DNA from: Clostridia bacterium
GTDB taxonomy: Bacteria; Bacillota; Clostridia; Oscillospirales; CAG-272
Length of the DNA: 39,617 nucleotides
Reading direction: 5' to 3'
Assembly (NCBI GenBank): GCA_024404665.1
Contig: JAKSPQ010000001.1
Coordinates: 1-39,617 of the forward strand
Under the pieces are notes generated by a model. The model worked only from the letters and a program-made list of their open reading frames with translations. It had not been told where the DNA came from and did no database searches. Position numbers and translations under genes: made by a program. Positions within the stretch are counted from its first letter, which is position 1. The number at the start of each line of letters is the position of its first letter. This document shows positions 7,717 to 21,291 of this stretch, piece by piece.

Positions 7717-7985
7717 GATGACGCTCCGTCACCTATGCCTGAGTGTCGGCGATTATAATAGATGCGACCGAAGGCGGTTTGCGTTAGCAAATCGATGACG
7801 CTCCGTCACCTATGCCTGAGTGTCGACGATTATAATAGATGCGACCGAAGGCGGTTTGCGTTAGCAAATCGATGACGTTCCGTCACCTATGCCTGAGTGT
7901 CGGCGATTATAATAGATGCGACCGAAGGCGGTTTGCGTTAGCAAATCGATGACGCTCCGTCATCGAAGCCTGAGTGTCGACGATT
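7717..7985. repeat. Tandem direct repeat, 77-bp unit x about 3.5
   Basis: Units start at 7717, 7794, 7871 and 7948 (the last is partial). The unit is gatgacgctccgtcacctatgcctgagtgtcggcgattataatagatgcgaccgaaggcggtttgcgttagcaaatc. Full units differ by single substitutions (gtcggc/gtcgac, gacgctcc/gacgttcc). Each unit contains three short hairpins: gatgacg-ctc-cgtcac, accg-aagg-cggt and ggtttgc-gtta-gcaaatc. Confidence 0.92.
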
Positions 7986-11890: not shown

Positions 11891-11940
11891 AAGTTTTATC
11901 TCCTTTGGATAAAATTAATTATTTTCTGTGAATGGTGGGC

Positions 11941-12018
11941 GAATAACAAAACAAAGAGGCGCCTGTCGGAGCAGAGTTCCGAAAGACGCCATTGCCTTGT
12001 TTTGTTATTCGTTTTTTT
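11941..12018 (+). terminator. Long hairpin plus T-tract in the glnN 5' leader, terminator-shaped only in the antisense (+) orientation
   Basis: The outer stem pairs gaataacaaaacaa (11941-11954) with ttgttttgttattc (11997-12010), with inner ggcg/cgcc and tcgga/tccga pairs. It is followed by gttttttt. On the glnN strand it is preceded by an A-run and followed by gcccacc. Confidence 0.45.
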
Positions 12019-12025
12019 GGAGGTT

Positions 12026-12065
12026 AAAAAAGAGAAAAACGCCCTTTAGCTTGCACTAAAAGACG
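12026..12065 (-). terminator. Leader (attenuator) intrinsic terminator of the glnN operon
   Basis: On the minus strand the RNA reads CGUCUUUUAG-UGCAAG-CUAAAGGGCG (10 bp including 2 G-U), followed by UUUUUCUCUUUUUU. It lies about 15-55 nt downstream of the predicted start site and about 135 nt before the glnN ATG. Confidence 0.7.
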
Positions 12066-12076
12066 CCCTTGCCTTT
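12059..12076 (-). promoter_or_regulatory. Candidate antiterminator hairpin with AAGGGC hexaloop (possible ANTAR site)
   Basis: On the minus strand the RNA reads AAAGGC[AAGGGC]GUCUUU. The 3' arm (12059-12064) and last loop base are the 5' arm of the leader terminator, so the two structures exclude each other. The loop has A at position 1 and G at position 4. Confidence 0.45.
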
Positions 12077-12085
12077 GATGGGCAT

Positions 12086-12114
12086 ATTTTACACCAAACA
12101 AACACGTTTGTCAA
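12086..12114 (-). promoter_or_regulatory. Sigma-A type promoter of glnN
   Basis: On the minus strand: TTGACA (12114-12109), a 17-nt spacer, then TAAAAT (12091-12086), with TG immediately upstream of the -10. A/T tracts lie further upstream. Confidence 0.65.
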
Positions 12115-12321
12115 GAGTTTTTTTCGATTTTTTAAAGATTTTTTCGCTTTGAGACCAATAAAGGGCTTCTCACGGCTGATCGCCGCCGTTTCGCCGTCTT
12201 ACGACAGTGCTTCAGGGCAGGATAAACCGCAAAAATGAATAATGTTAATCCGCATCTTATCAAAGAATCCTGCGCGGATAATAAAAATAGGGATTTTTTG
12301 TTTGGTTTTTGAATTTTTGTA

Positions 12322-12350
12322 TTGACAAATCGTTCAAAGAGTTGTATAAT
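12322..12350 (+). promoter_or_regulatory. Consensus sigma-A promoter of the GOGAT-glnA-ANTAR operon
   Basis: TTGACA (12322-12327), a 17-nt spacer, then TATAAT (12345-12350), preceded by TG. Confidence 0.7.
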
Positions 12351-12356
12351 ACGCGT

Positions 12357-12378
12357 AAATGAGCAAAGGCGTTCATTT
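12357..12378 (+). promoter_or_regulatory. Candidate antiterminator hairpin with AAAGGC hexaloop (possible ANTAR site)
   Basis: The RNA reads AAAUGAGC[AAAGGC]GUUCAUUU, an 8-bp stem with one G-U. The 3' arm and last two loop bases (12369-12378) form the 5' arm of the downstream terminator. Confidence 0.45.
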
Positions 12379-12423
12379 CTATCACAGTATAACTGTGCGG
12401 AAATGAGCGCTTTTATTTTTTTT
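12369..12423 (+). terminator. Leader (attenuator) intrinsic terminator of the GOGAT operon
   Basis: The outer stem pairs GCGUUCAUUUC with GGAAAUGAGCGC, with inner CACAG-UAUAA-CUGUG. It is followed by UUUUAUUUUUUUU (12411-12423) and ends 22 nt before the first ATG. Confidence 0.7.
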
Positions 12424-12445
12424 CACCATCAGAAAGAGGTACAGG

Positions 12446-13540
12446 ATGAAGCTCGAAGGAGAAGTACGCATTCCGTCGGGATGCGCGATTGCTGCTGTAA
12501 TATCCAAAGAAGGAAAGAAGATGTCGGGTTCTCTGATTACCGAGGCCATGAAGCCGATGCATGACAGATCCAACGGTCTGGGCGGCGGCTTTGCCGGCTA
12601 CGGCATCTATCCCGAATACAGGGACTATTATGCGTTCCATATGTTTTTTGACTCGCGCGAGACCCGCAAGGACTGCGAGGTTTTCCTAAAGGAGCGCTTT
12701 GAGATAGTAAAAAGTGAAATAATCCCCACGAGAAAGATTCCGGAAATAAAAGATATCCCAATCATATGGCGATACTTCTTAAGTCCGCTTAAATCCAAGG
12801 TCGATGCTCTTCAGCTCAATGAGGACGAGTATACCGTAAGAGCCGTGATGCACATCAACACTCAGCTTAAGGGTGCCTTCGTTTTCTCCAGCGGAAAAAA
12901 CATGGGAACCTTCAAGGCCGTAGGCTTCCCGGAGGATGTCGGCGTCTTTTACAGGCTTGAAGAATATGAGGGTTATTCCTGGACCGCTCATGGACGGTAT
13001 CCCACGAATACTCCCGGCTGGTGGGGAGGCGCTCACCCGTTTACGCTGCTTGACCAGTCGATAGTCCACAACGGTGAGATATCTTCATACGATGCCAACC
13101 GCCGTTTCATAGAGATGTTCGGTTATCGCTGCACGCTTCAGACCGATACGGAAGTAATTACATATATTCTCGATTACCTGATCAGAAAGCAGGGATTCAG
13201 CCTCGACGAGGCCGCCAAGGTCATCGCCGCTCCGTTCTGGAGCACCATCGGCCGAATGGCTGACGATGAGGAGAGAAAAAAGTGCGAATATCTCCGCAAG
13301 CTCTTCCCGAGTCTCCTGATAACAGGTCCGTTCTCCATCGTCTTCGGATTTACCGGAGGCCTCATGGCGCTGAACGACAGACTCAAGCTGAGATCTATGG
13401 TGACCGGAGAAAAAGACGACAGAGTATTCATCGCGAGCGAGGAAGCCTCTATCAGAACAATGGAGCCCGATGCCGTAAACATCAAGGCTCCCGCAGGCGG
13501 AGAGCCTGTTATCATTCGTGTTAAGGACGGTAAATATTGA
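12446..13540 (+). CDS. Glutamate synthase, stand-alone class II glutamine amidotransferase domain (archaeal-type split GOGAT, domain 1)
   Basis: 364 aa. A Cys lies near the N terminus in an Ntn-amidotransferase context (IPSGCAIAAV), with HGRYPTNT and VHNGEISSY motifs. An AAGAGG SD lies upstream. Confidence 0.88.
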   Translation: MKLEGEVRIPSGCAIAAVISKEGKKMSGSLITEAMKPMHDRSNGLGGGFAGYGIYPEYRDYYAFHMFFDSRETRKDCEVFLKERFEIVKSEIIPTRKIPEIKDIPIIWRYFLSPLKSKVDALQLNEDEYTVRAVMHINTQLKGAFVFSSGKNMGTFKAVGFPEDVGVFYRLEEYEGYSWTAHGRYPTNTPGWWGGAHPFTLLDQSIVHNGEISSYDANRRFIEMFGYRCTLQTDTEVITYILDYLIRKQGFSLDEAAKVIAAPFWSTIGRMADDEERKKCEYLRKLFPSLLITGPFSIVFGFTGGLMALNDRLKLRSMVTGEKDDRVFIASEEASIRTMEPDAVNIKAPAGGEPVIIRVKDGKY

Positions 13541-15045
13541 TGGGTATCGAATATATCTTTCCGGAGTATGAGGTTGTCCGCAACGAGTCACGCTGCATAG
13601 CCTGCCGTGTATGCGAACGACAGTGCGCCAATGAGGTGCATTCCTATGATCCCGAGCGCGGAATCATGATAAGCGACGAAACCAAATGCGTGGATTGCCA
13701 GCGCTGTGTTTCGCTTTGCCCCACAAGAGCTCTTAAGATTGTAAAGAGTGATTGCACATTCAGGGAAAACGCCAACTGGCAGAACGATACTATTAAGGAA
13801 GTTTATAAACAGGCAAACAGCGGAGGAGTTCTTCTTTCCTCCATGGGCAACCCGAAGCCGCTGCCCGTATACTGGGACAAGATTCTTATCAACGCCTCTC
13901 AGGTTACGAACCCCTCCATCGACCCGCTCAGAGAGCCGATGGAAACAAAGGTCTCTCTCGGCAAGAAGCCGGATAAGATTACCCGCGATGCCGAAGGAAA
14001 AATGGTCTGCGACATGCCCCCTCAGCTTGAGCTGTCAATGCCGGTTATGTTTTCTGCGATGAGCTACGGCTCCATCAGCTACAATGCCCACAGCTCTCTT
14101 GCCCGCGCAGCCACTAAGCTCGGAGTATATTATAACTCCGGAGAGGGCGGACTGCACGAGGATTTCTATCAGTACGGCAAGAACACCATCGTTCAGGTTG
14201 CCAGCGGCCGCTTCGGCGTTTACGAAAAGTATCTGGGCGGAGGAGCCGCAATCGAAATCAAGATGGGCCAGGGCGCAAAGCCCGGCATCGGCGGACATCT
14301 TCCCGGAGCCAAAATCGTCGGAGACGTTTCGAGGACCAGAATGATTCCCGAGGGCTCGGATGCCATTTCTCCCGCTCCTCATCACGACATTTACTCCATC
14401 GAGGACCTCCGTCAGCTGATTTTCTCTCTGAAGGAAGCCACCGAATATAAAAAGCCGGTAATCGTAAAGGTTGCCGCCGTTCACAACATCGCCGCTATTG
14501 CAAGCGGAATTGCCCGAAGCGGAGCGGATATCATCGCCATCGACGGTTTCCGCGGCGGAACCGGAGCTGCTCCCACGAGAATCAGGGACAATGTAGGTAT
14601 CCCGATCGAGCTTGCCCTTGCCGCTGTTGATACGAGACTCCGCGACGAAGGCATCCGCAACAACGTTTCCCTTGTCGTCGGAGGAAGCATCAGAAGCGCG
14701 TCCGATGTCGTCAAGGCCATTGCCCTCGGAGCCGATGCCTGCTACATTGCGACCGCCGCGCTGCTGTCGCTGGGCTGCCATCTGTGCAGAAGCTGCCAGA
14801 CCGGCAAGTGCAACTGGGGTATCGCCACACAGCGTCCCGACCTTGTGAAGCGTCTGAATCCCGATATAGGAAGCGAAAGACTCGTAAATCTTATGACTGC
14901 ATGGAACAATGAAATCAAGGAAATGATGGGCGGAATGGGTATCAACTCCATTGAAGCTCTCCGCGGAAACAGACTGATGCTCCGCGGAATAGGACTCACC
15001 GAAAAGGAACTTGAAATCCTCGGAATCTCTCATGCCGGAGAATAA
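13540..15045 (+). CDS. Glutamate synthase FMN/Fe-S central domain with N-terminal 2x[4Fe-4S] ferredoxin module (split GOGAT, domain 2)
   Basis: It has ferredoxin motifs (CIACRVCERQC, CVDCQRCVSLCP) and GltB-core motifs (MSYGSIS, NSGEGG, KMGQGAKPGIGGHLPG, SPAPHHDIYSIEDL, DGFRGGTGAAP). I chose the ATG at 13540 (TGATG overlap with the upstream stop) rather than the TTG at 13537. Confidence 0.9.
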   Translation: MGIEYIFPEYEVVRNESRCIACRVCERQCANEVHSYDPERGIMISDETKCVDCQRCVSLCPTRALKIVKSDCTFRENANWQNDTIKEVYKQANSGGVLLSSMGNPKPLPVYWDKILINASQVTNPSIDPLREPMETKVSLGKKPDKITRDAEGKMVCDMPPQLELSMPVMFSAMSYGSISYNAHSSLARAATKLGVYYNSGEGGLHEDFYQYGKNTIVQVASGRFGVYEKYLGGGAAIEIKMGQGAKPGIGGHLPGAKIVGDVSRTRMIPEGSDAISPAPHHDIYSIEDLRQLIFSLKEATEYKKPVIVKVAAVHNIAAIASGIARSGADIIAIDGFRGGTGAAPTRIRDNVGIPIELALAAVDTRLRDEGIRNNVSLVVGGSIRSASDVVKAIALGADACYIATAALLSLGCHLCRSCQTGKCNWGIATQRPDLVKRLNPDIGSERLVNLMTAWNNEIKEMMGGMGINSIEALRGNRLMLRGIGLTEKELEILGISHAGE

Positions 15046-15048
15046 AAG

Positions 15049-15480
15049 ATGAAAAGAGTATATGTTAACGAAGAATGGTGCCTCGGCTGCAGGCTTTGCG
15101 AATACAACTGCGCTTTTGCCAATTCCGGACTTAAGGACATGGTTACGGCCCTGAAGGGCAAAAAAATCTTCCCCAGAATTCATGTGGAGACCGACGGAAA
15201 AATCAACTATGCCGTTTCCTGCAGACACTGCGAGGATCCTATGTGCATAAAGAGCTGCATTGCAGGAGCGATATCCAAGAAGGACGGCGTGGTTGTTGTT
15301 GACAGAACACGCTGTGTCGGCTGTCTTACCTGCGTCCTTGTTTGTCCCTACGGAGCTCTTTCGCCCTCGGAGGACGGAATCATGCAGAAATGCGAGCTCT
15401 GCCTGAAGAATACCTGCGGAGAGCCTGCGTGCGTTAAGGGCTGTCCGAATAAGGCCATCGTTTACGAGGAACGTGATTGA
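15049..15480 (+). CDS. 4Fe-4S dicluster (polyferredoxin-like) electron-transfer protein
   Basis: 143 aa with four Cys clusters: CLGCRLCEYNC, CRHCEDPMCIKSC, CVGCLTCVLVCP and CELC..C..GCP. A GGAGAA SD lies upstream. Confidence 0.85.
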   Translation: MKRVYVNEEWCLGCRLCEYNCAFANSGLKDMVTALKGKKIFPRIHVETDGKINYAVSCRHCEDPMCIKSCIAGAISKKDGVVVVDRTRCVGCLTCVLVCPYGALSPSEDGIMQKCELCLKNTCGEPACVKGCPNKAIVYEERD

Positions 15481-15481
15481 T

Positions 15482-16714
15482 ATGAAAAATTATGTTATTA
15501 TTGGAAACGGCACCGCGGCCGCAGGCTGCATCGAAGGAATAAGAACAACGGATAAGGAAGGAAAAATCACGGTTATTTCCGCTGAGTCCCGTCCCGTTTA
15601 CTGCCGTCCGCTTATTTCGTACTACCTTGAGGGAAAAACAACCGTAGAAAAAATGTCTTACCGTCCCGCCGATTTCTATGAAGCGAACGGCGCGGAGGTT
15701 CTGTACGGCAAAAGAGCCGTAAAGGCAGATACAGAGGCTCACACGGTAGAGCTTGACGACGGTTCCGTTGTCTCCTACGACGAGCTTGCGCTGGCCACGG
15801 GCTCATCGCCCTTCGTTCCGCCATTCGCGGGACTTGATACCGTAAAGAACAAGTATTCGTTTATGACTCTCGACGACACTCTTGCGCTTGAAAAAGCCAT
15901 TACGCCGGACTGCCGCGTTCTGATTGCCGGCGCCGGACTCATCGGACTCAAGTGCGCGGAGGGCCTCAGAGACAGAGTAGGAAAAATCACGGTCTTCGAT
16001 CTCGCCGGTCGCGTTCTCTCGAGTATACTTGACGACGAATGCGCCTCGATAGTACAGAAGCATCTCGAGGACAGCGGAATCACGGTTCTTACCGGCGATA
16101 CTGCCTCGGAATTCAGAGGAAATACAGCTGTTATGAAGAGCGGACGCGTCATCGATTTTGACGTTCTGGTTCTTGCCGTAGGCGTCAGAGCGGGCATCGG
16201 CATCGCAAAGGATGCAGGCATTGCCTGCGGGCGCGGAATTACCGTCGACAATACCATGAAGACAAGCGCGGATTCGGTATATGCCGTGGGCGACTGTACC
16301 GAAAGCCCTGATATTTCATCCGGAGCAGTTAAGGTAATGGCCATTATGCCCAACGCTTACATGCAGGGAAGAACCGCGGGAATCAACATGGCCGGCGGAA
16401 GCGCTTCTCTCGATAATGCTTTCCCGATGAACTCGATCGGCTTCTTCGGACTTCATATGATGACTGCAGGAAGCTACGACGGTGAAATGAGCGAGGAAAA
16501 GACCGGGACGTCGCTTAAGAGATTCTTTGTCAAGGACGGCCGCCTTTCGGGCTTCATCCTTATCGGAGACACGACGAGAGCGGGCATTTTTACCGCTATG
16601 ATACGCAATAAAACGCCTACCAACAGCGTAGATTTCGAACTTATGAAAAAAAGTGCGACAAATGCTGGATTTTCTTCAGAAAAAAGAAGAAAAATGTACG
16701 GAAGTGTGGTATAA
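15482..16714 (+). CDS. FAD/NAD(P)-dependent pyridine-nucleotide oxidoreductase (probable electron-input subunit of the split GOGAT)
   Basis: It has two Rossmann signatures (VIIGNGTAAAG, VLIAGAGLIGLKCAE) and YAVGDC. I prefer the ATG at 15482 over the in-frame GTG at 15473, which overlaps the upstream gene. Confidence 0.87.
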   Translation: MKNYVIIGNGTAAAGCIEGIRTTDKEGKITVISAESRPVYCRPLISYYLEGKTTVEKMSYRPADFYEANGAEVLYGKRAVKADTEAHTVELDDGSVVSYDELALATGSSPFVPPFAGLDTVKNKYSFMTLDDTLALEKAITPDCRVLIAGAGLIGLKCAEGLRDRVGKITVFDLAGRVLSSILDDECASIVQKHLEDSGITVLTGDTASEFRGNTAVMKSGRVIDFDVLVLAVGVRAGIGIAKDAGIACGRGITVDNTMKTSADSVYAVGDCTESPDISSGAVKVMAIMPNAYMQGRTAGINMAGGSASLDNAFPMNSIGFFGLHMMTAGSYDGEMSEEKTGTSLKRFFVKDGRLSGFILIGDTTRAGIFTAMIRNKTPTNSVDFELMKKSATNAGFSSEKRRKMYGSVV

Positions 16715-16718
16715 TATT

Positions 16719-17438
16719 ATGGAGATAGACGTAAAGGAGCTCGGCTTTGCCGAGGTGAACCGTAAAATACGCGAAGCGGGGAGCGAATGCAGGGTTAAAG
16801 GCTGCATCGGACAGCGCTTCATCGCGGCCGGAATGAACGGAAAGAGCATCGTAATAGAGGGAATACCCGGAAATGCTCTCGGAGCTTATCTCGACGGAGC
16901 CGTCATCGACGTTCACGGCAATGCGCAGGACGCAGTCGGCGACACCATGAACGACGGTGTCATTACGGTGCGCGGAAACATCGGCGATGCCGCCGGCTAT
17001 GCGATGCGCGGCGGAAAAATATATGTCAGGGGAAACGCCGGATACAGAGCCGGAATCCACATGAAGGCATATAAGGAAAAGGTGCCGGTTATCGTCATCG
17101 GCGGACATACGGGCAGCTTCCTCGGCGAATACCAGGCGGGCGGAATCATCGCAGTTCTCGGACTTGGGGACGGTGACGGTCCGATCGTGGGAAATTTCCC
17201 CTGCACAGGTATGCATGGCGGGAAAATGTATCTCAGAGGAGAATGCAAGGGAATAGAATTCCCCAAACAGGTCAAAACCGAGACTGTCTGCGGCAAGGAC
17301 GACGAGAAGCTTTGCGAGATTATTTCGGATTATTGCAAGGTGTTTGAAACGGATGCGGAGGAAATACTGTCATCGGTATTTACCGTGGTTACTCCGGATT
17401 CCAAGAATCCCTTCAAACAAATGTATGTAGCAAACTGA
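16719..17438 (+). CDS. GXGXG-motif protein (glutamate synthase alpha-subunit C-terminal domain homologue; split GOGAT, domain 3)
   Basis: It shows repeated beta-helix G-x-G motifs (VHGNAQDAVGDTMNDGVITVRGNIGDAAGYAMRGGKIYVRGNAGYRAG). I chose the ATG at 16719 (MEIDVKEL...). The ORF-track start at 16653 overlaps the upstream gene by 62 nt. Confidence 0.87.
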   Translation: MEIDVKELGFAEVNRKIREAGSECRVKGCIGQRFIAAGMNGKSIVIEGIPGNALGAYLDGAVIDVHGNAQDAVGDTMNDGVITVRGNIGDAAGYAMRGGKIYVRGNAGYRAGIHMKAYKEKVPVIVIGGHTGSFLGEYQAGGIIAVLGLGDGDGPIVGNFPCTGMHGGKMYLRGECKGIEFPKQVKTETVCGKDDEKLCEIISDYCKVFETDAEEILSSVFTVVTPDSKNPFKQMYVAN

Positions 17439-17459
17439 CAAAAAAGGCAGGACAGGGTT

Positions 17460-18671
17460 ATGAATTACACAAAGGAAGAAGTATTGCAATATGTTGCCGA
17501 GGAGGATGTCAAATTCATCCGCCTCTCATTCTGCGATGTTTTCGGAAGGCAGAAGAACATATCCATAATGCCCGACGAGCTCTACAGAGCCTTTGAGACA
17601 GGAATAGCGTTTGATGCCTCTGCCATCACCGGCTTCGGCGATGAAACGCAGAGCGGTCTGCTTCTTCATCCGGATCCGGATACCCTTTCCGTTCTCCCCT
17701 GGAGACCGGAGCACGGCAGGGTTGTCCGTATGTATTCTTACATAACCTATCCTGACGGAACACCGTTCGAGGCCGATACCAGAGCGCTGCTTAAAAAGGC
17801 CATTTCCGAGGCCGAAGCCAAGGGATACAGCTTCTTCTTCGGCTCCGAACAGGAATTCTACCTGTTTGAAACCGATGATTTCGGCGCTCCTACAACACGC
17901 ACATACGACAAAGCAGGCTATATGGACATAGCTCCCGATGACAGAGGGGAGAACGTCCGCAGAGAAGTCTGCCTGACTCTCGAACAGATGGGCATCTGTC
18001 CCGAGTCCTCTCATCACGAGGAGGGGCCCGGTCAGAACGAAATAGATTTCAGATATTCCGACCCGCTCACGGCAGCGGATAACACAATGACCTTCCAGAC
18101 CGTCGTAAGAACCGTTGCAAAGAGAAACGGCGTATATGCGGACTTTTCTCCCAAGCCCATTGAAGGTCAGCCGGGCAACGGCTTCCACATCAATATGTCC
18201 GTCAAACCCGATACGGGCGACTGCAATCTCGGATATATGATAGCCGGAGTTCTGGAAAGAGCCAAGGCTCTTACGGTCTTCCTTAATCCGTCCGATAATT
18301 CTTACAGACGTCTCGGACGCAGCAAGGCCCCGAAATACATTTCGTGGTCAAAGGGCAACCGTTCTCAGCTTATAAGAATTCCGGAGGTTGCAGACGGAAA
18401 GACCCGCGCCGAGCTCAGATCTCCTGATCCCTCGGCAAATCCGTATCTTGCTTTTGCTCTGATTATTTATGCGGGACTTGCTGGACTCGAAAACCAGATT
18501 CCGCTTCAGGATCCCGCGGAAATCAATCTCTTCAAGGCGGACGGAGAGACTCTCTCCAGGTTCGAAAAGCTTCCCGAAACTCGTGCGGAAGCAATAAAAG
18601 CCGCTCTTGAAAGCGATTTTATCAGAGAGCGCGTTCCCGCAAAAATATTGGAGATTTACTGCGGAAGATAA
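17460..18671 (+). CDS. glnA: Glutamine synthetase type I
   Basis: 403 aa with GS-I motifs: FGSEQEFYLF, HHEEGPGQNEIDF, GNGFHINMS, NSYRRL and ELRSPDPSANPYL. Confidence 0.92.
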   Translation: MNYTKEEVLQYVAEEDVKFIRLSFCDVFGRQKNISIMPDELYRAFETGIAFDASAITGFGDETQSGLLLHPDPDTLSVLPWRPEHGRVVRMYSYITYPDGTPFEADTRALLKKAISEAEAKGYSFFFGSEQEFYLFETDDFGAPTTRTYDKAGYMDIAPDDRGENVRREVCLTLEQMGICPESSHHEEGPGQNEIDFRYSDPLTAADNTMTFQTVVRTVAKRNGVYADFSPKPIEGQPGNGFHINMSVKPDTGDCNLGYMIAGVLERAKALTVFLNPSDNSYRRLGRSKAPKYISWSKGNRSQLIRIPEVADGKTRAELRSPDPSANPYLAFALIIYAGLAGLENQIPLQDPAEINLFKADGETLSRFEKLPETRAEAIKAALESDFIRERVPAKILEIYCGR

Positions 18672-18755: not shown

Positions 18756-19361
18756 ATGAGTCTTAAGGAAAGAATATACAGCGTGTTGATAGTTTCCTCA
18801 TCGGAATCAATTAATTCCGCGCTTACAGCGTTGCTCCCCATGTCGGATTTTTCGCCGGTATCGGTGGCATCGAGCATAAGCTCGGCAAAAAGGATGCTTG
18901 AGGAGCGGTCATACGATTTTGTAATAGTAAATTCTCCGCTCCCGGACGATGTCGGAACCAGGTTTGCCATCGATGTAAACCTTTCCGTCTCAACGGTGGT
19001 TCTGTTGATGCTCAAGGCGGAGATACACGATGAAGTCCATGCCCAGGTTGCGGATCACGGAGTGTTCACGCTTGCGAAGCCTACGTCCACGAAAACCGTC
19101 GCAACGGCAATCAGCTGGCTTTGCAGCGCAAGGGAAAAGCTTCGCAGAAATGAAAAGAAGACGGTATCCATCGAATTCAAAATGGAGGAGATACGTCTGG
19201 TTAACCGCGCAAAATGGCTGCTGATAAGCGAAAACGGCCTGGATGAGCCCGATGCTCACAGATTTATAGAAAAAGCTGCCATGGACCGCTGTGTTTCAAA
19301 GAAGGAAATCGCGGAAGATATCATTGCGCACAGGCTGCGCTTTGAGCGCGGCGCAGAATAA
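18756..19361 (+). CDS. ANTAR-domain RNA-binding antiterminator with a pseudo-receiver domain
   Basis: 201 aa. The C-terminal ANTAR signature is EEIRLVNRAKWLLISENGLDEPDAHRFIEKAAMDRCVSKKEIAEDII. The N-terminal receiver-like fold lacks the acidic pocket (VLIVSSSES instead of DD) and the phospho-acceptor Asp (DFVIVN). It retains the KP motif. Confidence 0.85.
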   Translation: MSLKERIYSVLIVSSSESINSALTALLPMSDFSPVSVASSISSAKRMLEERSYDFVIVNSPLPDDVGTRFAIDVNLSVSTVVLLMLKAEIHDEVHAQVADHGVFTLAKPTSTKTVATAISWLCSAREKLRRNEKKTVSIEFKMEEIRLVNRAKWLLISENGLDEPDAHRFIEKAAMDRCVSKKEIAEDIIAHRLRFERGAE

Positions 19362-19362
19362 T

Positions 19363-19415
19363 AAAACCGTGTATATCAAAAAGTCCCGGACTTTTTGATA
19401 TACACGGTTTTTTCG
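19363..19415. terminator. Strong bidirectional intrinsic terminator between the ANTAR gene and the convergent GH-like gene
   Basis: The stem is about 22 bp: aaaaccgtgtatatcaaaaagtcc / ggactttttgatatacacggtttt. T-rich tracts flank it on both strands. Confidence 0.85.
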
Positions 19416-19467: not shown

Positions 19468-21189
19468 TTATGAACGGCGTTCGACGATGAAGCCGAAGGC
19501 CTCAAGGCTGTGTCCGTCGTATTCGCGTGCTTCGTCGCTGTTGTTGCCTATGATTCTCGTGCCGTCTTCGTATACGGCTATTTCGATGCCGTCTTCGGCA
19601 AAGATGTAATCCGTCATATATTTAAGCTGCAGATCCTTTATCTGTTCGAAAATATCCATACCTTCCTTAACAGCCGCGACGCTTTCGTCAAGAGCTTCGA
19701 GAGTCAGATCGTCTTCACCCATCCAGTTTTTGGCTCCGGTGCGGAATCTCGAGTAGAAGTAGAATGAGGGCAGTCCGCCGCGCATTATGAACATGAGTCT
19801 GTCGCGGGGGTCCTTGATGGTGAAGTTTATCGTAGGACTTGCGGGGTTGTAAAGCAGAATGCCGTGGTATACGAGCTCCCAAAACGGAAGATACCTGTCT
19901 GCGAGTTCGTAAGAATTGTGTCCGAATCCGTCACCGAACGTAACGTACAGGGCATAGTCCAGATACGGAATGGCAAAGTCCATCGCTCCCTCTGAACAGA
20001 AGCCTCCGTACAGAACCTGATTGAAATGCATCAGTCGCTGAGAATACACGATGCCCTCGGCGGTGGTGCAGGGGTGGAGCGGGGAATGGCAGGAGTCAGG
20101 CTCGATAATCGAGATTACATCGGTGAAATGAAGGCCGTTTTCTCCCATAAGAGCGATTTTCGGCTCGCTTTGGATTGCGTTTGTCCACTGCTTTTTAGGA
20201 CAGACATGGTAAGCGTATCCCGAGCTGTAGTGACCGATCTGGAGGTAATGCCCCTCCTTGTCGGTGGCAACGTTGTCCCAGGAGAAGTTGTCGGCAATTT
20301 CATAGCTGTCCACCCAGATGGTATGCGTGGAGATTCTGTAGCCGAGATTTTTGACATATTCTATGGTCTTTCTCATCTCGGTCTCTCCGCCGAGTCTTTC
20401 TTCGACGGGGAAAAACTGCGGGAATCTTCCGTCGTGACCGCCTATGGACCAGCCCACCAGCTGGAGATCGGCTTTTTCCACGCCCTGCTTTTTAAGAGAG
20501 TCCGCGATGCTGCGCACATCGGCAAAGGTGCAGGCAACATGCATCGGCGGTTCGTTGTCAGGTGTCTGATGCTTTACCGGAGAAGGACTCTGCTTCCAGC
20601 CCATGCGAATGCGGATGAGAGGTGCCTGCCTCTGATATTCCATAACCTCGCGGGCTTCGCATTTTTCCGACAGCGGGGATATTTCTTTTCTGGCAAGTCT
20701 GATGTTCCTTTCGGCAGCCGCCATTTCGGGATAGCCGGCGCTTTCGGGAAGCTCGATAATCTCGATTCTTATGTCGTCATAGGGATAATCGGTATCGACC
20801 TTCTCGAAATTTACGATCGGAGTGACGGTGTAAACGCCATCGCGACACAGGATCTCATATCTGAATTTGTAATTTCTCTCCAGACGGACGATGCAGCAGA
20901 GTCCCGGTTTTTTTATTCCGTAAAAGGACATTATCGGCTTGGAATACTCGGTGACGGCATCCGGACGGTCCTTAAAGAAGACCTGGAAGTCGGCGCGCAT
21001 TCCTATGTTGCGGGGCATAACGTAATATCCCTCGTCGCCTGCGTGAGCCATGCTGAGCTCGGGAAGAAGGCGCAGTTTTTTAGAGTTAGAAAAAAGTGAT
21101 TTATCCAAGGTCAGAAGCTTGTTGCCGTTTTTTTCGGAAACAGTGAATTCAAGCTGTTTTCCGTTCTCGTCGTATGCAAAAAAGTTCAT
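19468..21189 (-). CDS. Hypothetical protein, possibly a TIM-barrel glycoside-hydrolase-like enzyme
   Basis: The long ORF has coding-like composition and a GGAG SD 7 nt before the ATG at 21189. The ATG at 21195 sits only 1 nt from the SD. An AraC regulator lies divergently. The function guess rests only on weak resemblance (VGWSIGGHDGRFP...) and on context. Confidence 0.7.
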   Translation of the reverse strand: MNFFAYDENGKQLEFTVSEKNGNKLLTLDKSLFSNSKKLRLLPELSMAHAGDEGYYVMPRNIGMRADFQVFFKDRPDAVTEYSKPIMSFYGIKKPGLCCIVRLERNYKFRYEILCRDGVYTVTPIVNFEKVDTDYPYDDIRIEIIELPESAGYPEMAAAERNIRLARKEISPLSEKCEAREVMEYQRQAPLIRIRMGWKQSPSPVKHQTPDNEPPMHVACTFADVRSIADSLKKQGVEKADLQLVGWSIGGHDGRFPQFFPVEERLGGETEMRKTIEYVKNLGYRISTHTIWVDSYEIADNFSWDNVATDKEGHYLQIGHYSSGYAYHVCPKKQWTNAIQSEPKIALMGENGLHFTDVISIIEPDSCHSPLHPCTTAEGIVYSQRLMHFNQVLYGGFCSEGAMDFAIPYLDYALYVTFGDGFGHNSYELADRYLPFWELVYHGILLYNPASPTINFTIKDPRDRLMFIMRGGLPSFYFYSRFRTGAKNWMGEDDLTLEALDESVAAVKEGMDIFEQIKDLQLKYMTDYIFAEDGIEIAVYEDGTRIIGNNSDEAREYDGHSLEAFGFIVERRS

Positions 21190-21291
21190 AATCATACTCC
21201 TTTTAAAAATTGTACAGATTATTATAATTGAAAAACGGACCTGAGTCTATACCGAAACACAATAAAAAAGTTTGAAAAAGCAATATTGTGC

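Follow-up and report, generated by a model that had tools for sequence, protein, structure and literature searches.

The RNA targets of ANTAR proteins have been described as two hairpins with hexanucleotide loops (hexaloops), in which position 1 is A and position 4 is G (A1 and G4) (Ramesh 2012, PMC3369931). In the EutV/EutW system of the Enterococcus faecalis eut operon these hairpins, P1 and P2, are separated by 5-12 nt and induction requires both; the sequence of the closing pairs of P1, A-U and then C-G, also matters for induction (Ramesh 2012, PMC3369931). The ANTAR dimer contacts one hexaloop at a time, the minimal binding motif is a single hexaloop, and Tyr164 of EutV stacks on G4 (Walshe 2022, PMC8934654). 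As regards nitrogen metabolism, ANTAR leaders have been predicted upstream of glutamine synthetase (GS), glutamate synthase (GOGAT), PII and Amt genes in several Firmicutes (Ramesh 2012, PMC3369931). According to the part of the work of Stutz et al. (2007) that is related in PMC6316151, NitR of Clostridium saccharobutylicum, a member of the ANTAR family encoded next to glnA, induces GS and GOGAT under nitrogen limitation by antitermination. In Geobacter sulfurreducens the sequence CAGGCAANGGCGCC is located upstream of, and overlaps, the leader terminators of nifH, nifEN, nifX and glnK-amtB; the ANTAR response regulator GnfR binds RNA containing CAGGCAAGGGCGCC in vitro, and deletion of gnfR or gnfK leads to premature termination (Ueki & Lovley 2010, PMC2995071). 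Here we analyse two divergent leaders in a 39,617-nt stretch of contig JAKSPQ010000001.1 of a Clostridia bacterium (assembly GCA_024404665.1; the whole stretch is called the window), one preceding the GS type III gene glnN and an Amt-PII fusion gene, the other a GOGAT/GS-I operon that ends with a gene for a REC-ANTAR protein. Our results indicate that these leaders contain three attenuators, most likely opened by the operon's own REC-ANTAR protein, the binding being deduced from the GnfR precedent on virtually the same sequence. ANTAR control of GS and GOGAT is already described, and so is the recognition sequence itself; what is new here is the lineage and the set of targets, and a conserved departure from the P1-P2 pair that is coupled to a regulator with a pseudo-receiver.

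The plus-strand leader begins with a promoter at positions 12322-12350 (TTGACA, a 17-nt spacer and TATAAT), which matches the consensus in 12 of 12 positions and recurs with its spacing in relatives. Six nucleotides past the -10 box, at or next to the predicted 5' end of the transcript, begins a hairpin of 8 bp, AAAUGAGC-AAAGGC-GUUCAUUU (12357-12378, hexaloop at 12365-12370), which is identical or near-identical in 34 GOGAT-type leaders and has a folding energy of -6.1 kcal/mol on its own. The hexaloop together with the 3' arm of this hairpin also forms the 5' arm of an intrinsic terminator (12365-12423), in which GCGUUCAUUUC pairs with GGAAAUGAGCGC (12399-12410) and a U-tract ending at 12423 follows the stem (12365-12414). 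In the minimum free energy (MFE) fold of 12345-12445, positions 12365-12414 form one terminator hairpin of -31.9 kcal/mol with z = -5.7, the z-scores of the window leader folds being -5.7 and -6.4. The terminator is also recovered by RNAalifold and by a covariance model built from 31 related GOGAT-type leaders, the window and its closest relative left out, which matches 12355-12429 with 66 bits (E = 1.7e-14). The same model scores the glnN leaders weakly (15.6 and 13.7 bits) and the generic terminator at the end of the operon with 25.8 bits, so that part of its score reflects terminator shape.

On the minus strand, the glnN/amt-PII promoter (12114-12086; TTGACA, a 17-nt spacer and TAAAAT) matches 11 of 12 consensus positions and is kept in relatives. 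The hairpin AAAGGC-AAGGGC-GUCUUU (12076-12059, loop in the middle) begins 9 nt past its -10 box and is kept upstream of the GS-III gene in relatives; it overlaps a terminator with a stem at 12070-12035, a GCAA loop and a U-tract to 12026, which was found both by the terminator scan and in the folds. To this extent our results agree with a first-pass annotation of the sequence, which had claimed two divergent promoters, here seen to be near-perfect and of the sigma-70 type, and in each leader a hairpin competing with a terminator, with coordinates that prove exact on both strands. The annotation had, however, counted one hexaloop per leader. That count stands for the plus-strand leader, whereas in the glnN leader an exact match of the core and a relaxed scan both point to a second, overlooked hairpin, AAGGC-AAUGGC-GUCUU (11998-11983). 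The loop and the 3' arm of this hairpin build the inner stem, GGCGUCU/AGGCGCC (11990-11958), of a long terminator hairpin (12011-11940), whose outer stem of 17 bp is formed by the A-rich 5' flank (12011-11995) and the U-rich tail (11956-11940), and whose U-tract is weaker and interrupted. As this third core copy has a terminator-like hairpin of its own, the glnN leader comprises two such units of hairpin and terminator, one behind the other at a distance of about 77 nt, and not a canonical P1-P2 pair. The core GCAANGGCGTY occurs without mismatch in exactly three copies in the window, all located in this intergenic region and all in the sense of the leaders.

Two further features of the long hairpin are mentioned as side observations. 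Its outer stem is kept in one related locus (L001) with a compensatory change, and a similar pairing of A-tract and U-tract is present in two others (L012 and L015). On the plus strand a T-run follows the hairpin 12011-11940, which may be a bidirectional terminator or an element of processing or stability.

The likeness to the GnfK/GnfR system extends to the REC-ANTAR regulator, to a leader sequence overlapping an intrinsic terminator and to nitrogen gene targets, glnK and amtB among them. The first copy in the glnN leader, AGGCAAGGGCGUC, has 12 of the 13 bases of the GnfR site of nifH, the second copy reads AGGCAAUGGCGUC, and the GOGAT leader shares GCAAAGGCGU with the GnfR-type sequence; the recognition sequence is thus present in the window. 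On the other hand, the stem is GGC/GUC with a G·U pair in the window and GGC/GCC in Geobacter, the promoters are of sigma-A consensus and not RpoN-dependent, and the targets are GS-III, GOGAT and GS-I instead of nif genes. The window is of Clostridia and GnfR of Deltaproteobacteria. With the targets of EutV the hairpins share the A1/G4 hexaloop (the loops of the window are AAAGGC, AAGGGC and AAUGGC), a C-G closing pair followed by an R-U pair, and the overlap with the 5' half of the terminator; whereas EutV targets use P1 and P2, the window has the terminator-overlapping hairpin only, at the 5' end of the transcript. The order of GS-I and ANTAR gene is common to the window and the NitR system as far as the latter is related in PMC6316151, and, within the same limits, the window organism differs in using also GS-III, an Amt-PII fusion and a split GOGAT of archaeal type.

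The relative energies bear directly on how such leaders could work. Taken alone, the three hairpins of the window are weak (-2.6 to -6.1 kcal/mol), and the terminator conformers, which the terminator scan and the folds show to be G+C-containing stem-loops with a U-tract behind them, are the more stable ones by 11-14 kcal/mol in each of the three leaders and are mutually exclusive with the hairpins. The folding of both leaders, which the first-pass annotation had proposed as a check, therefore gives the predicted alternative structures. Termination would accordingly be the default, and a stabilising factor would be needed for read-through. The same holds for related instances, in which the MFE fold pairs the loop and the 3' arm with a downstream arm in approximately 97 of 101 cases, and in 74 of 101 at least five U are found within the next 8 nt. 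It could be argued that the 5' hairpins merely stabilise the mRNA and that the hairpins behind them serve as processing sites or as terminators that leak and are not regulated: the hairpins start within a few nucleotides of the predicted 5' end, and 5' stem-loops are known to stabilise some Firmicutes mRNAs. We consider this very improbable, as hairpins of this strength are too weak against terminators so much more stable, and the explanation accounts neither for the invariant loop, the obligatory overlap with a terminator and the promoter-less second copies described below, nor for the restriction to nitrogen genes.

Conservation was studied in 85 related loci, each encoding the REC-ANTAR protein (86 sequences including the window, 1.16 Mb), from Lachnospiraceae, Oscillospiraceae, Christensenellales, a metagenome-assembled genome of Peptococcaceae and an isolate, Allobaculum stercoricanis DSM 13633 (L029), in which both leaders are present. 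Across them glnN and GOGAT-GS-I-ANTAR keep their divergent arrangement. The core motif is present in 135 copies compared with 8.3 in block shuffles, and with a stem of at least 5 bp in 101 copies compared with 0.5; these counts are inflated by relatedness, and the number of distinct 26-mers is 92. A downstream open reading frame (ORF) was called for 98 of the 101 stem-bearing instances, and all 98 are in sense orientation and directly upstream of it. These frames encode GS-III (48), the first GOGAT protein (30) or GS-I/ANTAR (6), while the 13 unmatched ones include glutamate dehydrogenase (GDH), purC (SAICAR synthetase), a DHODB-type Fe-S protein and an 870-aa PPDK_N protein. When loop variants are allowed, and where the upstream sequence is long enough, the motif precedes 41 of 42 GS-III genes as well as 36 of 38 GOGAT operons, and the remaining two operons sit behind a motif-bearing gene. 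Approximately 70 instances are preceded by a promoter that matches the consensus in 9 or more of 12 positions and whose end is 3-11 nt, usually 5-11 nt, away from the hairpin, which makes the hairpin the first structure of the transcript and leaves no space for an upstream P1. Instances without a promoter correspond to the second copy where a leader has two in tandem; tandem copies are located 62-127 nt apart in 15 glnN leaders of relatives, and further pairs are present once before a GDH-sized ORF and once before GS-I.

The presence of the motif before GDH and SAICAR synthetase genes in relatives indicates a regulon wider than GS and GOGAT. GDH is preceded by it in L010, L028, L046, L067 and L078 (confirmed by Pfam in L010 only, in the others by ORF size and N-terminal match), and purC in L010, L016, L029 and L040 (confirmed by Pfam in L010 and L016, in the others again by ORF size and N-terminal match); in the window neither GDH nor purC bears the motif. 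The protein of approximately 870 aa with a PPDK_N domain (ATP-binding domain of pyruvate phosphate dikinase) is preceded by the motif in L076 (1099-3739), L084 (1099-3721) and L032 (from 2084 onward). Its ORF sits before the GOGAT genes in two loci, and in L032 the motif directly follows the ANTAR gene and the next ORF shares the N-terminal residues MAAFE of the PPDK_N protein.

The conserved element has a well-defined anatomy. The loop consensus is A-A-N-G-R-Y, in which positions 1, 2 and 4 are invariant, position 3 varies freely, and a purine (G or A) at position 5 is followed by a pyrimidine (C or U) at position 6. A1, A2 and G4 do not change in any of the 92 distinct instances, nor in any looser variant (AAAGAC, AAAGGU and AAGGGU), and the observation of the first-pass annotation that the loops carry A1 and G4 and are followed by GU is thereby borne out. 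The closing pairs C-G and then G·U are found in 92 of 92 instances, although the search pattern itself required both, and in a looser search the closing C was altered in one variant only (L030). Beyond them the stems fall into about four classes, all of which pair: AAAUGAGC/GUUCAUUU, (U)AAAGGC/GUCUUU(G), AAGAGC/GUUCUU and UGAAGC/GUUUCA. When all instances are taken together, 87.9% of cells in the hairpin are paired, compared with 71% in shuffles, and the covariation score is 0.50 compared with 0.22; none of 500 shuffles scores as high and slid registers reach at most 0.19. Support for the 5' hairpin is therefore good, mostly from differences between the classes. For the terminator the structural support is firmer: in 34 GOGAT-type leaders the consensus structure given by RNAalifold is the terminator, with the hexaloop and the 3' arm of the hairpin as its 5' arm, and 11 of the 21 pairs of its helix show compensatory changes, loop positions 5 and 6 being among the positions affected. 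In L003 the terminator 3' arm has another sequence and another register and is still complementary to the fixed hairpin. Covariation in relatives, the absence of which the first-pass annotation would have taken as evidence against alternative structures, is thus present in both.

The inverted repeat at +1 to +20 could, on the other hand, be regarded as the DNA operator of a dimeric repressor that acts as a roadblock to the promoter. The element directly follows the -10 box in about 70 leaders, its sequence is highly conserved and there is little covariation within classes. However, the second stem pair is G·T in 92 of 92 instances, and one-sided changes give G·U or U·G, by which pairing in RNA is kept but symmetry in DNA is not; the second copies 62-127 nt downstream have no promoter; all copies overlap terminators, and covariation links the 3' arm of these to the bases of the loop; and no site of the GlnR/TnrA type (TGTNAN7TNACA) was noticed on reading the sequence. 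The invariant G·T pair, the promoter-less second copies and the covariation of the terminator rule the operator out as a candidate, and we regard this as the least probable of the explanations weighed here, with hardly any chance of being correct.

Other ways of reading the same bases were rejected as well. A tetraloop fold, GC(AANG)GC with a GU bulge, is contradicted by four independent variants in which loop position 5 changes from G to A without compensation at C10. No Rfam family, including T-box, glutamine riboswitch and PyrR site, reached its gathering threshold when the window and five related loci were searched, and the permissive matches in the region (PyrR site, Phe leader, rliE and miRNAs, with E of about 1) are attributed to generic terminator shape.

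Returning to the ANTAR interpretation, the leaders follow the scheme of Ramesh et al. in one respect and depart from it in another. The terminator-proximal hairpin is exclusive with an intrinsic terminator, as in that scheme, whereas the P1-P2 pair with a linker of approximately 5-12 nt is absent and the copies in the glnN leader each have their own terminator. No second A1/G4 hexaloop was found in the terminators, the apical loops of which are variable and 3-20 nt long in the window fold and in the consensus of the GOGAT leaders. One hairpin per terminator is therefore a conserved design and not a gap in the first reading of the sequence. In our literature search no paper on single-hairpin ANTAR leaders in Clostridia was found.

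The candidate regulator is encoded by the last gene of the plus-strand operon (18756-19361), where the first-pass annotation had placed it; it matches PF03861 with 55.6 bits compared with a cut-off of 27.3 and was aligned to EutV, Rv1626 and AmiR. A scan of the window predicted no promoter or terminator between the GS-I gene and the ANTAR gene. The protein has thousands of homologues; the closest, with 57-83% identity, belong to uncultured Clostridia of gut and rumen. Four of the five RNA-contact residues of EutV (structures 6WSH/6WW6) have counterparts: Lys143, Lys147, Lys149 and Tyr164 align to Arg147, Arg151, Lys153 and His168, which are conserved in 82-86 of 86 orthologues, while Arg142 of EutV aligns to Ile146. 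In contrast to the RNA-binding part, the receiver domain is degenerate. Asn59 is aligned to the phospho-acceptor Asp (Asp54 in EutV, the Asp of the IMD motif in Rv1626) and the acidic pair is replaced by Ser14 and Ser/Ala15, all of them invariant or nearly so in the 86 orthologues, whereas Lys108-Pro109 is kept; the protein thus lacks both the acidic pair and the phospho-acceptor Asp of a phosphorylatable two-component receiver. With the phospho-acceptor Asp changed to Asn and the acidic pair gone, the signal is unlikely to arrive by phosphorylation and would reach the protein by some other means. This differs from GnfR, which is phosphorylated by GnfK, and there is no kinase gene near the ANTAR gene in the locus.

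Precedents for such a regulator exist. AmiR has been considered unlikely to be a response regulator, its receiver not working (Ueki & Lovley 2010, PMC2995071). NasT is controlled by its partner NasS, which releases NasT on sensing nitrate or nitrite. For AmiR the equivalent partner is AmiC. Like these two, the regulator of the window is an ANTAR protein with a receiver-like N-terminal domain that is not a working phospho-receiver, and a partner protein may provide its signal input as in AmiC/AmiR or NasS/NasT. No AmiC-like or NasS-like gene is adjacent to it in the locus; its conserved neighbour is instead the GS-I-like gene (17460-18671), which in nearly every locus is located directly 5' of the ANTAR gene. 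With 403 aa the GS-I-like protein is short, its score of 345 bits remains under the TIGR00653 cut-off of 429 bits, and it might be a sensor or partner instead of, or besides, an enzyme.

From the computed promoters, hairpins, terminators, their exclusivity and relative energies, conservation, regulon membership and linkage to the ANTAR gene, the following mechanism can be proposed. Two strong, probably constitutive sigma-A promoters would fire divergently, and each transcript would open with a hexaloop hairpin of low stability (A-A-N-G-R-Y in the loop, closed by C-G and then G·U). As the loop and the 3' arm of the hairpin double as the 5' arm of a far more stable terminator, transcription would halt in the leader by default, at one stop before the GOGAT/GS-I/ANTAR operon and at two in series before glnN/amt-PII. 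The REC-ANTAR protein would bind the hairpin as it emerges and block strand invasion by the terminator 3' arm, so that RNA polymerase could read through. The location of the regulator gene behind its own target would result in positive autoregulation, and the circuit would co-induce GS-III, the ammonium transporter/PII fusion, GOGAT and GS-I, and in relatives also GDH and purC. That this ANTAR protein is the binder, and that nitrogen limitation is the inducing signal as for NitR and GnfR, we infer from these precedents. The GnfR-bound site, the control of GS and GOGAT by NitR and the predictions of Ramesh et al. (2012) support the ANTAR interpretation in general. More specifically, the idea of the first-pass annotation that one ANTAR protein co-regulates GS-III/Amt-PII and GOGAT/GS-I/itself is supported by the presence of the motif in both leaders, its linkage to the ANTAR gene, the conserved RNA-contact residues and the GnfR precedent.

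Several points weigh against this mechanism. Binding and termination in this lineage rest on sequence and precedent, and all loci were chosen for carrying the ANTAR gene, so that co-occurrence is seen from the positive side only. Within the GOGAT class taken alone the hairpin shows no double compensatory change, its ten one-sided changes all leading to G·U or U·G; the covariation of the hairpin derives from stem differences between classes and is phylogenetically non-independent. In EutV, altering the linker between P1 and P2 abolished induction (Ramesh 2012, PMC3369931), and antitermination has been argued to need successive binding to two hairpins (Walshe 2022, PMC8934654), where the window offers one per terminator. 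Finally, the receiver lacks the phospho-acceptor through which the regulator might be switched. The degenerate receiver, the layout with a single hairpin, which departs from the canonical ANTAR substrate, the choice of loci and the dependence of ANTAR binding here on precedent also speak for a related possibility, namely that the attenuators are real but their hairpin is read by another factor, either a different RNA-binding protein or the GS-I-like or PII proteins directly. This appears unlikely to us, considering that the loop holds the exact ANTAR determinants A1 and G4 together with the C-G closing pair, that GnfR, itself an ANTAR protein, binds virtually the same sequence in vitro, that the ANTAR gene is part of the regulated operon in nearly every locus, and that the RNA-contact residues are conserved to the extent given above.

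A more specific proposal can also be made, which we hold tentatively and with a little less than even confidence. The leaders may represent a P1-less class of ANTAR antiterminators, in which a single hexaloop at the 5' end suffices and an unphosphorylatable pseudo-receiver is signalled via a partner, plausibly the GS-I-like protein or the PII domain, and/or via positive feedback. Such a class would run against the two-hairpin requirement of EutV, and its regulator would then act as the master switch for nitrogen assimilation, with GS-III, GOGAT, GDH and purC, in many uncultured gut and rumen Clostridia. The prevailing model demands a recruitment and an antitermination hairpin, and these leaders are a natural, conserved collection of cases where a single hexaloop for each terminator seems to suffice. 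In the Clostridia of gut and rumen, which are abundant but for the most part uncultured, the control of nitrogen assimilation is poorly understood; the motif supplies a cis-element defined by sequence, together with a candidate regulator, and the element can be used to predict regulons straight from metagenomes. The degenerate receiver, in turn, poses the tractable question of how an ANTAR protein could sense nitrogen without phosphorylation.

As to the genes behind the two leaders, the minus strand encodes, in this order and according to Pfam, GS-III, the Amt-PII fusion, asnB and a purF-like gene, followed by ORFs that the first-pass annotation read as carA and carB. The regulated block (11890-8011) consists of glnN (11890-9794) and, after a gap of 25 nt, the Amt-PII fusion gene (9768-8011), both identified by Pfam and NCBIfam. 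On the plus strand the order by Pfam is split glutamate synthase, GS-I-like gene and REC-ANTAR gene; the regulated genes preceding the latter (12446-18671) comprise the split glutamate synthase (GATase_2, FMN domain, Fer4, Pyr_redox_2 and GXGXG) and the GS-I-like protein, as assigned by Pfam, NCBIfam and synteny in relatives.

Read-through from amt-PII into asnB-purF-carAB, which had been suggested on first reading, is neither supported nor excluded. The terminator scan of the window found no canonical minus-strand terminator after amt-PII. From the stop of amt-PII to the start of asnB there is a gap of 400 nt, which contains 3.5 tandem copies of a 77-nt unit with 95% identity (7717-7985), each unit with a TATTATAAT stretch; no further copy of the unit was found in the rest of the window or among the 85 related loci, and it has no Rfam match. 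In the relative L010 asnB is preceded by a T-box leader (3556-3322, minus strand; 85.6 bits, E = 2.8e-19, which is just below the Rfam gathering score of 93), and similar sequence is present upstream of asnB in L008, L021, L029 and L067. No T-box was found in the asnB leader of the window, and asnB is thus apparently under different control in this genome. The plus-strand operon, for its part, ends with a bidirectional terminator (19366-19408, both strands), which the terminator scan identified as a perfect inverted repeat with a 20-bp stem and T-runs on both strands, and which is placed between the ANTAR gene and a convergent gene (19468-21195).

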